55,093 nucleotides of DNA from a virus (lineage: Duplodnaviria > Caudoviricetes), in IMG/VR virus record IMGVR_UViG_3300045993_000169, positions 1 through 55,093 of that record; one strand, written 5' to 3'. Each line of letters opens with the position of its first letter. The first letter of the stretch is position 1. A model generated the notes under the pieces. It had not been told where the DNA came from. It ran no database searches and saw only the letters and a program-made list of their open reading frames with translations. Position numbers and translations under genes: made by a program. Of this stretch, positions 324 through 32,389 are shown piece after piece.

Positions 324-3056
324 TTACCCTCCTTCACTTAGTGATGTCTTCAATGTAGTAACAGACACACCCAAAGCAGAAGCAATCTCTGCCTGTGTTG
401 CACCATTCTTTGCCATTGCCCTAGCCCTTGACTGATTAGCTGTAGTCATTAGAACCTTAGCCCTTGGTGTAGCCAACTGCTTGATCTGATCTAGATCAGC
501 ATTGTCAAGGATCTTATCCAACCTATCACGACTAATAGCACCAGCCTGTATAGCAGCCCATTCACTATCTGTTAGTACTATCTTAGGCTTCTTAGCGCCT
601 GTCCTAGTACGGGCAGTCTCAAGGGCCATGTACTTCATCTTCTTCTTCTCAGAGTTCTCCATGTCCTTGTTAGAGTCTATCAAGGCTTGGATCTTGGCCC
701 CTGCTATGACCTGGGCCTGTCTTTCAAGGGGGCTGTTTCTTTGGGCGAGGATCAGTTTGGCATTGAGGGAGGCTACTTCAGTAGCATAGGCGGTCTTAGC
801 AGACTTGTTTACTTTGGTAGGGGGGGTATTAATCATCTCTAACCTAGCCATGTTGGCAAGGCCCTTCATCTTGTTAGAGTGATCAGCATAGACCCTCTCT
901 ATAGGGGTGCCTTCATGATTAGGCCCTGACAATAGGGTACGTGCATCAGTAGTCTCAACTAATGCCTTTGATTTCTGGGTGGGGTACTTAACCTTCTCTG
1001 TTACCACACCTGTTCTCTTGTTAGTGGTAGTCCTAACATAAGACTCGCCTGTTGGCACAAAGATTAAAGCACCAGTCTTGCGATCTATAGGACCGCCATC
1101 TTTTGCTGATTGGAGCTTGTATTTAGGAACATCTACCCTATGCCTAGCCCTAGAGATCAGGGTTGCAGCACCTGCATTAGCCTTGCCCTGATACTTAGTT
1201 TTGAGTTGAGCAATCCCATTGTCTACAGCAGACTGTTTGTAGTTGAGGTTATGCTTCTCAGCATCGATGACCACCATTGAATGCCGAACTGCTCGAGCAA
1301 GCTCGGTTGGCGTTGCGCCCATGATAGTCATGTCTGTAATGAGGTTAGAAACAACACCCATTTGAACGCCCTTTGTATGGACGCTCATAGGCACCATGCC
1401 TTCATAAGCAGGATACTTGTCTTTAGGGTTGAAGTTCTTCAGTCCTGCCAATGCTGGTGCAGTCTTGACACTACGACTGTTGTTTGGGATGACAAGAACT
1501 GTGTCACCATCGAAGTCTGCCCCAGAAAGGCGCTCTGCTACCTTCGAGTTGATACCAATCGCATCTGATGCAGCACCTAGAAGCTTCTTTGCATCAGGCT
1601 GCCTGTTATTGACAATCAGTTCTGGGATCTCGAAGATACCACCATGAGGAAAGCGAATTAGAGCAACTCGTTCTCCATCATTGAACTTGGGGGCATAAAC
1701 TTCGTTATCCTTCATCTTGTTTACAGGGAGAATAACATGTGTTCCCTGTCTTGGCATGGCTGCTGCTTTAAGATGTACAGCCGATGAGTCTGCTGAGTCT
1801 GCATAAGACTTAAGCAACTTGACACGAACAGCAGCATTCGTCAAGGATGATATTTCATCAAGATCAAGCGTCTTTTTCTCGAAAGTTTTGGCTAGCTGTG
1901 CCTTAGCAAACTCGGTGTTCTGTTTAGAGAGCATCTGAGAGGACAAGCTTTTTGACCATTTCTCCCATTGACCTTCATCATTGACAATGTTCATCGCAGA
2001 GCGAACGGTGTGGGGGATTTCTGCACCGTTTTCATCAAGCTTCTTAAGCTGACGAACAACAGCGCCAAATGGATTTGCCTCGTCCATCTTTCCTGTTTTT
2101 TTGTCGATCTTGATTGGCTTCATGGCATCATGCTTATCGCCAGTATCACTCTTGTTCGTGTTGAACATGAGATCTACACCTTTAGGCAGGTCATCTTTGA
2201 ACATGGCCATACCTTTAAGGTAGTGCGTACCGTCAACAGCGATACGAACCTGAGCATAGTTCTTTCCGCCTAAAGAAAGATCGTCTACATTACGACGAAC
2301 ATAGACAACACCATCAGCATCAGAGCCACCTTGTTCTGCATATCGGATCTTAACCCGACTTGATGAAACTGATATTGGAGGCTCAATTCCTGACCAAGAA
2401 AGGCCGTTGTCCTCAGTGAACTCCATAAGCGGCTTGATCTTGCCGATGTCTTTCGCAATGTCGGCATACGTAGTTCCCGGAACAGCAAGACAAGTAATCG
2501 TCGTCTTGTTTGTGGTCCCAAGCTGATCTACCTGAACCTTTGTGCGGTAGTATCCCTTTTCCTGTAGGACAGCAACGGCTTTGTCCAACTTATCTCGACT
2601 AACACCAAGAATATGGTGTTCAACGCCAGCACCAATATCGACTACACCTAAAGCATCAACTTTGTCTTTCAACATGTTCGCTGTGGACATGAGTTGATCA
2701 GCCTTGAGCTTTGTAGAAGGATCACGAAGAGCACGAACCGAAGATTCGTTAATACCCATCTGTATACCAATGGCCATGTTGCTCATACCACTGTCATGCA
2801 GTTTGTTAGCCATAGAGATATCCGCTTGCTTCTGAGCATTCTTGTAAATCGACTTCTTTGCCTGAAGCTCAGCCCTTGACATATCCATGCCTTTAGCAAT
2901 CTGAGTATCTGTTAGCCCTTGCTTGTGCATTCCCTCAACGTAGTCAAGAAAGCTCTTGTTGCGCTGAGTCTCTGTATCACCACTACCCCAAGGATAACGA
3001 CCAGACTTGTGGAGAGTGCCGATGTGGGAAAGGTAGTTCTCTTCAGAAATTATCAC
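324..3056 (-). CDS. putative single-chain two-barrel (DPBB) DNA-dependent RNA polymerase, YonO/cellular-RdRP-like, with HTH domains
   Basis: GADFDGD (ADFDGD at nt 1503-1520) preceded by LIRFPH; DG..QVR..LKG motif; HSMVVIDAEKH resembles RdRP HS.AVDFPK; HTH-like segments at both termini. Confidence 0.8.
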   Translation of the reverse strand: MIISEENYLSHIGTLHKSGRYPWGSGDTETQRNKSFLDYVEGMHKQGLTDTQIAKGMDMSRAELQAKKSIYKNAQKQADISMANKLHDSGMSNMAIGIQMGINESSVRALRDPSTKLKADQLMSTANMLKDKVDALGVVDIGAGVEHHILGVSRDKLDKAVAVLQEKGYYRTKVQVDQLGTTNKTTITCLAVPGTTYADIAKDIGKIKPLMEFTEDNGLSWSGIEPPISVSSSRVKIRYAEQGGSDADGVVYVRRNVDDLSLGGKNYAQVRIAVDGTHYLKGMAMFKDDLPKGVDLMFNTNKSDTGDKHDAMKPIKIDKKTGKMDEANPFGAVVRQLKKLDENGAEIPHTVRSAMNIVNDEGQWEKWSKSLSSQMLSKQNTEFAKAQLAKTFEKKTLDLDEISSLTNAAVRVKLLKSYADSADSSAVHLKAAAMPRQGTHVILPVNKMKDNEVYAPKFNDGERVALIRFPHGGIFEIPELIVNNRQPDAKKLLGAASDAIGINSKVAERLSGADFDGDTVLVIPNNSRSVKTAPALAGLKNFNPKDKYPAYEGMVPMSVHTKGVQMGVVSNLITDMTIMGATPTELARAVRHSMVVIDAEKHNLNYKQSAVDNGIAQLKTKYQGKANAGAATLISRARHRVDVPKYKLQSAKDGGPIDRKTGALIFVPTGESYVRTTTNKRTGVVTEKVKYPTQKSKALVETTDARTLLSGPNHEGTPIERVYADHSNKMKGLANMARLEMINTPPTKVNKSAKTAYATEVASLNAKLILAQRNSPLERQAQVIAGAKIQALIDSNKDMENSEKKKMKYMALETARTRTGAKKPKIVLTDSEWAAIQAGAISRDRLDKILDNADLDQIKQLATPRAKVLMTTANQSRARAMAKNGATQAEIASALGVSVTTLKTSLSEGG

Positions 3057-11931: not shown

Positions 11932-12345
11932 CTATCGCAGGTGCTGGTTTTCCAACTGTCGATGCATCCTCATGATGACCTCTTCGCCAACACTGTCGGG
12001 TCGGTTGTTGTCTCGCCGAATGGCTTCCTCAAGACTGATCATGAAGATATGGAGTTGGACTTCTGCTCCCAGTTCAGTGCAGAACTTGATGAGACGATTG
12101 CGATTCGACTTGTTGACGTTGGTGTCAGCCACGATGATGTCGACCTGATCGTAAAGGAGAACCTCCTCGATCTTGTCGTAAGCACATACCGTAACCAACT
12201 GCTCGCTGTCTCCATGTTTGAGACCCAACTCAAGTCGGATGTCGTCTCGACAAACGATAACCGCTCCTGTTCGGGCAGCCTCTTCCCTCGCCCAAGTCGA
12301 CTTACCTGAGGCTGGGATTCCAACACAAAGTGTAACTGTTGACAT
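11932..12345 (-). CDS. P-loop kinase, polynucleotide-kinase-like
   Basis: GIPASGKS Walker A, RDDIR, DTN, RxxxR lid. Confidence 0.85.
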   Translation of the reverse strand: MSTVTLCVGIPASGKSTWAREEAARTGAVIVCRDDIRLELGLKHGDSEQLVTVCAYDKIEEVLLYDQVDIIVADTNVNKSNRNRLIKFCTELGAEVQLHIFMISLEEAIRRDNNRPDSVGEEVIMRMHRQLENQHLR

Positions 12346-30574: not shown

Positions 30575-30978
30575 TTCGAATTCGGGTAGATCGTCCTTAC
30601 AATCCCAGAACCTGCGATGAGTTTTGCGCAATCTTTGCAAGGCTCACAGGTGACATAGATAGAGGCACCAACAAGTGATGTCCTCGCATAGAGAAGGGCG
30701 TTGGCTTCTGCATGGATGGATACGCAGTTGTCGTATGCCGATAAGGCACTGACGTCATCGTAAGACATCCGACCTCGTGGGCAATGACCAGCAAGACATC
30801 CCGGCATCCCAGAGGGAGCACCGTTATATCCTGTCGAGAGAATGCGATGACCGGCATCGACAATAACAGAGCCTACTTGTCTTCGGCGACAGTCGGCTCG
30901 TAGTGAAACTGCGTCAGCGAGGTTCAGGAAGTATGCGTCCCATGGTGGGCGATAGTCATCCACGACGACGCATCTCAC
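30571..30978 (-). CDS. dCMP deaminase
   Basis: GYNG, HAEAN, PCxxC motifs. Confidence 0.9.
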   Translation of the reverse strand: MRCVVVDDYRPPWDAYFLNLADAVSLRADCRRRQVGSVIVDAGHRILSTGYNGAPSGMPGCLAGHCPRGRMSYDDVSALSAYDNCVSIHAEANALLYARTSLVGASIYVTCEPCKDCAKLIAGSGIVRTIYPNSK

Positions 30979-31078
30979 GGACGAAGATCCAGATGAGCCA
31001 TAGACCTCCGGTGATGGTAGTCAGGACGACATCGAGGATGAAGTTCCAGAAGCCGTAGCGACGACGATTGTTTGCCAT
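30956..31078 (-). CDS. small membrane protein (40 aa, not in ORF track)
   Basis: MANNRRRYGFWNFILDVVLTTITGGLWLIWIFVREMRRRG; AAGGAG RBS. Confidence 0.7.
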   Translation of the reverse strand: MANNRRRYGFWNFILDVVLTTITGGLWLIWIFVREMRRRG

Positions 31079-31108
31079 TGTGGTTCTCCTTCAGAGTTGG
31101 TTAGGCAG

Positions 31109-31208
31109 AAAAAAATGAGAACCTATGACTACATCTAGTAGGACGTGTTCGTTGCAGTAACGGACAACGTCAGACTCATTGCGGTAACGGGCCCATAGGG
31201 TTCTCATT
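31109..31208 (-). ncRNA. candidate promoter-driven small RNA with two CCGUUACY loops
   Basis: terminal IR AATGAGAACC(C)TATG followed by U7; 15-nt internal repeat. Confidence 0.6.
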
Positions 31209-31230
31209 ATAGGGGGTGACTTTCTTGCGA
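31206..31230 (-). promoter_or_regulatory. phage promoter motif
   Basis: TCGCAA-N13-TATAATGAGA. Confidence 0.8.
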
Positions 31231-31261
31231 GGTCAAAAATGAAACCACATACATTGCTCGC

Positions 31262-31354
31262 GTGTACCATCAAAGACGATTTTTGCACGGAGTTAGGTGT
31301 GCCATTATAAATGACTTTTGCACCGCAGTGTACCATCAAAGACGATTTTTGCAC
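31262..31354. repeat. three 27-bp direct repeats inside a candidate small RNA (31236-31370)
   Basis: 31262-31288 and 31328-31354 identical, 31297-31323 diverged. Confidence 0.8.
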
Positions 31355-31371
31355 TGACTATGTGATTCCAA

Positions 31372-31464
31372 ATAATGAGAGAGAAATCTGATATGGTTCG
31401 GTGTCGTAGTGTCACGTCTCCGAGTGGTGCCGTAGTGTCACGGCTCCGATTTCTCTCTCATTAT
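31372..31464 (-). ncRNA. candidate small RNA with twin hairpins closed by a 17-bp IR
   Basis: IR 31372-31388/31448-31464; 24-nt repeats 31400-31423 and 31426-31449. Confidence 0.6.
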
Positions 31465-31486: not shown

Positions 31487-31882
31487 TTAAACGGTCCCCA
31501 ATCCGATGATCTCGTAATGAAGACCTTGAAGATGATCGGTATGCCCATTCAGATGCTTTGACATTACCGTCACAGCGTTGCCGGTCTCTTCCGCACAATC
31601 TTTGACTGTCTCCCAAATTTGATTCGTCTCAAGACACTTGACGAACTTATGGGCATACCCACCAAGATTCACATTGTTCGAGACTGTTATGACCGGTGCT
31701 ATAACGGGTGCTATAACAGGCGCGATGACAGGAGCAACCGTGTTAACGATCTGGGTTGAAGTCTGATTAAACTTCACGAAAAGCAAAGTCCCAGCGACGG
31801 TAACTGCAGCAGTGACACCGATCGCAATGTAGACGTTCTTGTTCTCTTGGAAATGCGTCTTGATCTTGTCACGCTGGGCCAT
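31487..31882 (-). CDS. membrane-anchored protein with NUMOD1-like DNA-binding domain
   Basis: TM helix, (APVI)x4 linker, VKCLETNQIWETVKDCAE; start uncertain. Confidence 0.6.
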   Translation of the reverse strand: MAQRDKIKTHFQENKNVYIAIGVTAAVTVAGTLLFVKFNQTSTQIVNTVAPVIAPVIAPVIAPVITVSNNVNLGGYAHKFVKCLETNQIWETVKDCAEETGNAVTVMSKHLNGHTDHLQGLHYEIIGLGTV

Positions 31883-31925
31883 GTTCAACAATGTATCTTC
31901 CCCTTCGGTTTTGGGTGGGCGAGGC

Positions 31926-32064
31926 AAAAAAATGAGATCGAGGTAAACGCTCCAACTAAAAGCGTTTCGTTAACTAGCTGTTTGTACCTTGCTAGCACAT
32001 CAGGTAGGATTCGAACCTACACATTAGTGTCTTGATCTCCGGGTTTGCACCAGAGCTCTCTCTC
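31926..32064 (-). ncRNA. candidate structured small RNA containing a tRNA T-arm
   Basis: GUAGG-UUCGAAU-CCUAC at 32004-32020, further hairpins, closing stem followed by U7. Confidence 0.6.
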
Positions 32065-32089
32065 ATTATAGGACGAGTAATTCCTGCGA
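32065..32089 (-). promoter_or_regulatory. phage promoter motif
   Basis: TCGCAG-N13-TATAATGAGA. Confidence 0.8.
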
Positions 32090-32389
32090 GGGATAGCGAA
32101 TCATGAAGGCTGGTTTACACTTTCCGCGCTTTGAAAAACCAAACTTCTCGTAGAGTTCCTCAAGTTGAGTATCGTTCAATGTAGTTTGTATTGGGTGGCC
32201 ATACCGCTGAGCAGAGAGCGTAAGTGTAAAACCGTGCTTATCAGCATACTGAATGACCTCGTCTAAAACAGCATTCGCTTGCCCCTGATGCCTAACAGGA
32301 GACCACAGACTCGACACAGAATATAGATTAGGTTCGATGTAGATGAGTCTGACTGAAGCTTGACCGTTCTTAAACTCTATGGGTTTCAT
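32066..32389 (-). CDS. GNAT-family acetyltransferase
   Basis: RHQGQA motif A, LYEKFGF. Confidence 0.75.
   Translation of the reverse strand: MKPIEFKNGQASVRLIYIEPNLYSVSSLWSPVRHQGQANAVLDEVIQYADKHGFTLTLSAQRYGHPIQTTLNDTQLEELYEKFGFSKRGKCKPAFMIRYPSQELLVL

Follow-up and report, generated by a model that had tools for sequence, protein, structure and literature searches.

We analysed a 139-nt element on the minus strand of a Caudoviricetes genome, IMG/VR virus record IMGVR_UViG_3300045993_000169; the window referred to throughout is the whole of this record (55,093 bases, estimated completeness 93%). A PHROG scan of 88 open reading frames (ORFs) recovered a siphovirus gene set (terminase, portal, capsid, tail and tape-measure proteins) along with a 1,251-amino-acid primase/polymerase, a helicase, exonucleases and a dCMP deaminase. 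The polymerase shares 65% identity with its counterpart in Gordonia Deejayvirinae (cluster DJ) phages, all real genes of the window lie on the minus strand, and none of the 88 ORFs matched an integrase-described PHROG family at E ≤ 1e-5; the available passages of a cluster DJ genome announcement describe these relatives as lytic, with the integrase absent (PMC9671010). The element (31926-32064) starts directly behind a promoter-like motif, which overlaps the stop codon of an upstream ORF (32066-32389), and ends in a run of seven U's (U7) ahead of a gene for a 131-amino-acid protein. It is very probably a genuine structured RNA, belonging to a family that is defined in this analysis and named R1, and not a tRNA. 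The parts of the element and its flanking features are as follows.

32063-32089, minus strand: phage promoter-like motif (TCGCR, 13 bases, YTNTAATGA), overlapping the stop codon of the upstream ORF
31926-32064, minus strand: R1-family small RNA gene, 139 nt, with the G that follows TATAAT as its first base and the U7 run as its 3′ end
32056-32064, minus strand: 5′ strand of the closing stem P1 (GAGA..GAG), partner 31934-31942
32037-32055, minus strand: H0, an extra 5′ hairpin of this lineage, 6 bp, stem CUCUGG/CCGGAG, loop UGCAAAC (a T-loop of the family type)
32033-32036, minus strand: 5′ strand of P2 (AUCA), partner UGAU at 31999-32002
32021-32032, minus strand: junction J2/3, consisting of AGAC (32032-32029) and the 5′ strand of the pseudoknot, ACUAA (32028-32024)
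32004-32020, minus strand: P3, the T-loop hairpin GUAGG/UUCGAAU/CCUAC
31999-32002, minus strand: 3′ strand of P2 (UGAU)
31973-31996, minus strand: hairpin P4 (GCUAGC, 12-nt loop, GCUAGU)
31945-31967, minus strand: hairpin P5, 7 bp, with the 3′ strand of the pseudoknot (UUAGU, 31959-31955) and two G's (31953-31952) in its loop
31934-31944, minus strand: ACC (remnant of the 3′ strand of P6), then the 3′ strand of P1 (CUC..UCUC)
31926-31932, minus strand: U7 run, one A after P1, the presumed terminator tail
31487-31882, minus strand: downstream gene, 131 amino acids, with a hydrophobic N-terminal stretch

A script check of the window copy found standard pairs at all listed positions of P1-P5 and at all five positions of the pseudoknot (A-U, C-G, U-A, A-U and A-U). 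When the letters were re-read, the hairpins, T arm and U7 run described in the initial annotation all lay where it had placed them on the minus strand: CUGG/UGCAAAC/CCGG at 32053-32039, which extends to 6 bp over 32055-32037; the T arm GUAGG/UUCGAAU/CCUAC at 32020-32004; CUAGC/GCUAG (31995-31991 with 31978-31974); AAACGCU/AGCGUUU (31967-31961 with 31951-31945, enclosing the loop UUUAGUUGG); and U7 at 31932-31926. Its proposed closing pairing fared less well: the letters GAGAUC (32039-32034) and GAUCUC (31939-31934) are present, but the family supports AUCA-UGAU (P2) and the 5′-terminal P1 instead. The loop that it had called D-loop-like does bear GG and sits 3′ of the T arm, an order of strands that is permuted relative to tRNA; UUAGU within this loop (31959-31955) is read here as the pseudoknot partner of ACUAA (32028-32024).

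Taken alone, the element is weak evidence. Its fold z-score is −2.35, and the window has a single T-arm core GGTTCRANYCC where 0.38 would be expected, with at least one such core in 32 of 100 shuffles. The reality of the element rests on its relatives—that is, on an independent covariance-model match and on covariation across the family. The stem ahead of the U7 run is the long-range P1 and not a local hairpin, and a consensus scan found no canonical intrinsic terminator (a short G+C-rich hairpin with a loop of 3-8 nt, then a T run) at the element.

The family was reached through the DNA polymerase and then through the syntenic region of Gordonia phage Petito, which holds an unannotated cassette sharing the stretch ahead of the T hairpin, the hairpin stem and a second hairpin. 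BLAST with the Petito cassette matched 90 records (20 over at least 80% of the query) from Gordonia phages and the Rhodococcus phages ReqiPepy6 and ReqiPoco6, and a second BLAST search gave 21 Gordonia phage records with no annotated feature beneath the match; unannotated intergenic R1 copies are found in Petito, Kerry, Avazak, Secretariat, Hydrus, ReqiPepy6 and ReqiPoco6. A scan with a strict pattern that required AGAC, the P3 stem and UGG yielded 33 IMG/VR stretches, 39 metagenome stretches and 3 stretches on contigs of metagenome-assembled genomes (MAGs). These three MAG contigs (3.2, 53.6 and 40 kb, from a species-genome collection) are probably phage contigs, and all three match the R1 covariance model. 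The model was built from an alignment of 18 members (A2), from which the window copy and the pseudoknot were excluded; a first search with it gave 46 matches (49 sources), and after the metagenome scan there were 67 matches (66 sources, 56 distinct rows), drawn from IMG/VR, metagenomes, MAG contigs and cultured phages of Gordonia (Deejayvirinae) and Rhodococcus (Pepyhexavirus). The sole match of the model in the window is 31922-32044 on the minus strand (48.2 bits, E ~7e-10, full model length). This is the second-lowest score among the full-length first matches of the family, and the window copy is a divergent R1 member. By sequence, 1.2 kb around the element had no BLAST match among cultured phages, and the exact 27-mer made up of the T arm and its flank is absent from IMG/VR.

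According to the covariance model, each of five positive-control records carries one R1 copy, and none of five other Kenoshavirus genomes carries any. With filters off, R1 was also absent from the stretches examined of L003 (the closest relative as judged by one neighbouring protein), L006 and L009. This patchy presence among siphoviruses related to Gordonia Deejayvirinae and Rhodococcus Pepyhexavirus is the distribution of an accessory gene. R1 is found in more than 20 cultured SEA-PHAGES Gordonia phages, while sister phages of the same genus are without it; with such natural presence/absence pairs and tractable hosts, the function of R1 is therefore directly testable.

Covariation supports the common fold throughout the family. 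Five helices (P2, P3, P4, P5 and P6) were annotated in A2, a plain MAFFT alignment, with P2 nested around J2/3 and P3, and P6 nested around P4 and P5. In A2, 97.6% of cells pair and 12 of 23 pairs show compensatory changes, a result equalled by none of 500 shuffles, and pairing falls to 26-44% in controls with slid partners; over the 56 distinct rows, 97.1% of cells pair and 23 of 28 pairs are compensatory (0/500 shuffles as good). P2 is 100% paired with compensatory changes at 5/5 pairs (56 rows) and occurs in relatives as GGCG/CGCC, GGCU/AGCC, GGUG/CACC, GAUA/UAUC and GACG/CGUC. The P3 stem covaries (Hydrus has GUUGG/CCAAC), P4 is 98.6% paired in the family with 4/4 pairs compensatory, and all six P5 pairs covary. 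The pseudoknot, in which five bases of J2/3 pair with the P5 loop, covaries at 5/5 pairs in the 56 rows, although it lies outside the model and the 56-row alignment was fitted to the nested helices and not to it. Of the 18 rows of A2, 10 have GC and 8 have UA at one of its pairs (columns 21-84), with none unpaired, and mutual information identified the outermost pair (columns 17-126 of alignment A3), where 25 of 30 rows have AU and 5 have GC, across an optional bulge. P1 and a U-rich tail are present in 24/24 cassettes tested, and P1 covaries (AG/CU, GG/CC, CG/CG, AAA/UUU) in versions such as GAGAAG/CUUCUC, GAGAGG/CCUCUC, GAGACG/CGUCUC and GAGAAAA/UUUUCUC. The AGAC of J2/3 is invariant in all rows of alignments A1 and A2, as are the two G's of the P5 loop in all A2 rows. 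The P4 region ranges from nearly absent to an insertion of ~70 nt; a coding role for R1 was rejected on this variation in length between members and on substitutions that follow the helix pattern. T-loop position 6 might also touch the P4 loop, but the signal for such a contact (mutual information 0.83, 19/25 rows pairable) was too weak to claim it.

Conservation on a shorter timescale is visible in a close relative on a contig from a permafrost sequencing run (X4), which spans 31770-32092 and differs from the window by four listed substitutions and no indels within the 139 nt. One substitution lies in the U run, two in the P4 loop—which is atypical for the family in the window and becomes the family-like AAGCAA in X4—and the fourth replaces C by G at T-loop position 3. 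Over the next 156 nt downstream of the element there are 16 substitutions and 4 indels. The listed differences within the element are thus confined to loops and the U run, while the flank drifted. The H0 region has no listed differences in X4 and varies in contigs of two other runs (X1 and X2); the letters of the H0 loop, UGCAAAC, are identical to those of the P3 loop in L073. Two tandem, divergent R1-like cassettes were seen in another relative (L084:8887-9090 and L084:9120-9255), one with an extra T-loop-type hairpin inside a large insertion in P4, and the second with a long P3 loop and a 5′ T-loop hairpin sitting where the window has H0.

The resemblance of the window copy to tRNA is local. 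Positions 32020-32004 have the 5-bp stem, 7-nt loop and T54..A58 of a tRNA T arm, and at E ≤ 10 the sole Rfam tRNA alignment is this arm (model positions 43-63; 14.5 bits against a gathering score of 29). Nothing in the element aligns to positions 1-42 or 64-71 of the tRNA model, where an acceptor stem and anticodon arm would lie, and the strand 3′ of the T arm pairs solely with four bases ~30 nt upstream (P2). ARAGORN found no tRNA gene in the window, and Rfam 15 gave no family match for the element at gathering score and only chance-level matches at E ≤ 10; the initial annotation, which denied the element a canonical tRNA layout, had expected the ARAGORN result to be negative. Eight relatives' R1 copies searched at permissive thresholds (E ≤ 5) were also without an Rfam match. 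Among relatives, seven-base P3 loops keep U1, R4 and A5 in 55/55 cases, the commonest loop being UGAAAGA (23/56 rows). UUC at loop positions 1-3 is found in the window only (1/55), and the X4 relative has UUGGAAU, with G at the equivalent of C56. The family conserves a generic T-loop motif and not TΨC identity; the canonical T-arm likeness of the window is therefore a lineage-specific variant, and its tRNA-type loop is incidental. The 'perfect tRNA T-arm' highlighted in the initial annotation is thus real in the window and is not a feature of the family.

The element lies behind the motif TCGCR-13-YTNTAATGA, which the window, with an expectation of 0.16, contains 16 times, on the minus strand in every case. 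The motif precedes almost every small gene at 30.9-35.8 kb, and is found 11 times in Petito against 0.87 expected. It corresponds to the 43-50-nt intergenic TATAAT motif of cluster DJ genome announcements (PMC9671010, PMC10868162), in the available passages of which, and of a further announcement, no tRNAs are reported and small RNAs are not mentioned (PMC9671010, PMC10868162, PMC11008172). A consensus scan for sigma-70 promoters and terminators flagged neither the promoter nor the terminator of the cassette, and left the 16 motif sites likewise unflagged. The motif copy at 32063-32089 stops exactly where the element starts, and every R1 copy lies directly behind the repeated promoter motif of its phage. 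Transcription most likely starts at the G immediately 3′ of TATAAT, because RNA pairing joins the first bases to the 3′ end in all 24 cassettes. The initial view of a small-RNA cassette with a T-loop hairpin in a non-tRNA scaffold is supported by such a promoter-to-terminator unit of the R1 family. This promoter layout would resemble those of single-subunit phage polymerases more than a sigma-70 −10 box, and a start right after TATAAT, as suggested by covariation of the first bases, bears on which polymerase reads this 'sigma-70-like' motif. As a lead, the repeated promoters might be read by a 910-amino-acid protein encoded at 324-3056 (minus strand), a candidate RNA polymerase of the phage. 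It matches PHROG 4291, described as 'RNA-dependent RNA polymerase', and is conserved across 250 phage records, among them records from Arthrobacter, Gordonia, Streptomyces and Lactococcus, where DNA-binding protein is the usual annotation; sequence comparison gave it no PDB relative and no NCBIfam match, and its Pfam matches are to terminal helix-turn-helix domains only.

R1 shares a design with other RNAs of these phages. In each cassette of this build at 30.9-35.8 kb, the bases that follow TATAAT (GAGA...) can pair with those just ahead of the U-rich tail, whereas the ordinary genes of this array end with local hairpins instead. Among the relatives, Hydrus (L014:588-654), ReqiPepy6 and ReqiPoco6 (L016:319-391 and L015:27-99) carry cloverleaf tRNA-like RNAs that score 37-43 bits with the Rfam tRNA model and are labelled 'tRNA-OTHER' in the GenBank records of ReqiPepy6 and ReqiPoco6. 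Their 'anticodon' loops are of 4 nt (GCAA) or 6 nt, and each lies within a cassette of promoter, closing stem and U run. These anticodon-less cassettes have in common with R1 the promoter motif, the closing stem made from the transcript ends, the U run and the genome zone, and in Hydrus also AGAC ahead of the T arm; they differ in being true cloverleaves in which a 4- or 6-nt loop replaces the anticodon loop, whereas R1 forms no cloverleaf, and the window has none of these cassettes by ARAGORN and Rfam. Such sister cassettes of like design link the cassette zone to tRNA-shaped RNAs; real tRNAs lie near R1 in L022 and L028.

Compared with tRNA itself (RF00005), R1 has a T-loop hairpin of 5 bp and 7 nt with U1...A5, a second hairpin with GG in its loop, and a pairing between this loop and the strand 5′ of the T hairpin that recalls the D-loop/variable-loop contacts of tRNA. 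It differs from tRNA in having no cloverleaf, anticodon arm or acceptor end, in the position of its D-like hairpin 3′ of the T hairpin, and in T-loop positions 2 and 3, which are non-tRNA-like in 54/55 relatives. Bacterial Y RNA-like RNAs (YrlA), some of which are phage-borne, hold a tRNA-like module within a stem formed by the 5′ and 3′ ends of the RNA. The enclosure of the module by an end-to-end stem is similar in R1, but the order of the D-like and T-like arms is different, and Rfam returned no Y RNA or YrlA match at E ≤ 10 for the element, the check proposed in the initial annotation, or at E ≤ 5 for relatives. A Ro/Rsr-named PHROG family was matched by 0/88 ORFs, many of which have no family at all. 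The T-loop modules of RNase P, T-box stem I and riboswitches share the U-N-N-R-A signature and their use as a docking module within a larger fold, and differ from R1 in size and architecture, with no sequence or model match. A published catalogue of 8,495 anonymous candidate structured RNAs from IMG/VR, found by intergenic covariation and 29-151 nt long, is alike in data source, type of evidence and length range, gives no function or structure in its available passages, and may include R1 (PMC10690425). The literature searched and the GenBank records examined contain no description or annotation of R1. That phages carry tRNAs is known; a conserved, strongly covarying, tRNA-sized RNA with the tertiary core logic of tRNA alone is thus without counterpart in Rfam 15, these records and this literature. 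That R1 is a distinct new class of tRNA-core mimic is a somewhat doubtful proposition. On that reading R1 would serve the phage by tying up or disabling a host factor that recognises the shape of tRNA, for instance a processing enzyme or a tRNA-directed defence nuclease, and copies with two T-loops might instead dock on tRNA itself.

The explanation that we favour, tentatively and at something short of an even chance for the statement as a whole, is that a free-standing phage gene encodes a structured small RNA of ~139 nt that acts in trans as a mimic of the tRNA core. Transcription would start at the G just after TATAAT, and the P1 closing stem and U run would end it and protect, or seal, both ends of the RNA. 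The short P2 would stack on P3, as the acceptor stacks on the T arm in tRNA, while the P5 loop would pair with the strand before P3 and present its two invariant G's to the T-loop. The outcome would be the D-loop/variable-loop/T-loop core of a tRNA, rebuilt with its strands in another order. As an accessory RNA, it might bind in trans a host or phage factor that recognises tRNA by its core or elbow, and so serve, for instance, as a decoy or an inhibitor. A trans-acting mimic of tRNA shape is preferred on the strength of the single-copy accessory distribution, of this core logic and of the cloverleaf tRNA-like RNAs that relatives carry in the same zone and with the same cassette design. Mimicry of the tRNA core in trans, with permuted strand order, is in itself possible, and we propose it with caution.

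Several observations weigh against this explanation. The start site was deduced from sequence, and a sigma-70 reading of TATAAT would move it ~7 nt further downstream, into P1. By the covariance model, the window copy is without P6 (GGU/ACC) in the standard register and forms at best two of its pairs (GU/AC); a substitute P6 using an upstream GGUG is possible, but clashes with H0 and P1. The nested fold that agrees with the family has a free energy of −33.6 kcal/mol against −39.7 kcal/mol for the minimum-free-energy structure, 6 above the minimum, with the pseudoknot uncounted. The invariance of AGAC, P3 and UGG is partly a matter of design, because the pattern scans required them. Most members have G and A at T-loop positions 2 and 3, the partners of G18 and G19 in tRNA, and a literal copy of the elbow is therefore not conserved. 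T-loops occur also in riboswitches, RNase P and rRNA, so a T-loop alone is no proof of mimicry. A search of sequencing runs with the element sequence found DNA contigs only, with no RNA run among those listed as containing it. Finally, in 16 of 30 loci including the window, a gene with a ribosome-binding site follows the U run without a new promoter, an arrangement that fits a cis-acting leader too.

Such a leader or attenuator, resembling a riboswitch or a protein-dependent switch, is the main rival, and we consider it unlikely but serious. P1, which closes the fold, doubles as the terminator stem, so a stabilised core would raise termination and throttle the next gene. The near-invariant junction bases, pseudoknot and T-loop are as expected of ligand-binding aptamers, the ORFs at the 16 loci begin no more than ~50 nt past the end of the hit, and in the window the interval from the U7 run to the start codon at 31882 contains no promoter motif. 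However, a fresh promoter follows the RNA in 11 of the 30 loci (3 more are unclear), making the RNA there a separate unit. The downstream genes vary, encoding a small membrane peptide, a phrog_2152-like protein or a protein with transmembrane (TM) and helix-turn-helix (HTH) segments, and the same design of closing stem and U run wraps tRNA-like and other inserts; differing downstream genes and unrelated payloads speak against a dedicated switch. Neither the element nor its relatives match an Rfam riboswitch. The U run and P1, common to all such cassettes, could also be read as a mere elaborate terminator or insulator whose RNA product has no role, which is hardly to be expected given that inner helices, pseudoknot and T-loop, needless for a terminator, are conserved and that the listed differences of a close relative within the element are limited to loops and the U run.

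Other readings start from the T-loops or from the compactness of the fold. Paired T-loops stack on the tRNA elbow in RNase P and T-box stem I, and R1 might likewise bind tRNA rather than mimic it, with the loops of H0 and P3 as a stacking platform. The window does have two loops of this type (UGCAAAC and UUCGAAU) and both L084 cassettes bear an extra T-loop-type hairpin, but among members read fully the extra hairpin is restricted to the window and L084, the H0 region varies in the X1 and X2 run contigs, and no specifier-like or UGGN-like element was identified, which leaves tRNA binding quite improbable. A self-cleaving ribozyme or other catalytic RNA would be in keeping with a compact, pseudoknotted, phage-borne fold with invariant junction bases; no known ribozyme family matches and no cleavage-site logic is evident, and we regard it as very improbable. 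A decayed tRNA gene, or the 3′ fragment of a tRNA at a phage attachment site, is scarcely credible despite the perfect T arm, the local 14.5-bit Rfam match and the tRNA or tRNA-like genes near R1 in relatives. The family is conserved with compensatory changes, the tRNA-type loop occurs in the window alone of 55, no tRNA alignment extends beyond the T arm, an integrase is lacking among the 88 ORFs at the PHROG threshold given above, and the element has its own promoter and terminator; the initial annotation had likewise set decay aside.

The R1 cassette of the window has further cassettes for neighbours. In a second (~31370-31459, minus strand; fold z-score −7.64), the promoter motif precedes a 12-bp closing stem around two repeated hairpin units of ~19 nt, and the tail is AU-rich; Petito has a cassette of like design with two other repeated hairpins (L002:13777-13900), after a homologous TM+HTH gene. 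A third (~31109-31205, minus strand) has an 11-bp closing stem, a U7 run and an insert with two similar units of ~14 nt, and lies directly before a small membrane-peptide gene (30956-31078). Between the second and third, ~31262-31354 (minus strand) contains two 27-nt direct repeats and a looser third copy, and an 87-amino-acid ORF at 31091-31354 is probably spurious. Two other cassettes with closing stem and U run hold different inserts in L003 (4846-4915 and 5648-5770). This phage group thus carries a battery of small-RNA cassettes, each with a promoter, a closing stem made from the ends and a U run, the payloads of which include tRNA-like RNAs that lack an anticodon loop.

As to the proteins around these cassettes, the Petito homologue of the 131-amino-acid downstream protein (31487-31882) is annotated as a helix-turn-helix DNA-binding domain, and Pfam returned no match for the window protein. 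A membrane peptide of 36-46 amino acids that ends in a WLIWIFVREMRR-like motif adjoins small-RNA cassettes in many relatives (window 30956-31078, minus strand; loci L004, L019, L021, L033, L036, L041, L043, L046 and L003). Further away, a 137-amino-acid P-loop kinase (11932-12345, minus strand) matches PHROG 'polynucleotide kinase' and Pfam AAA_33, and may be of relevance to RNA repair in a phage with tRNA-shaped RNAs.

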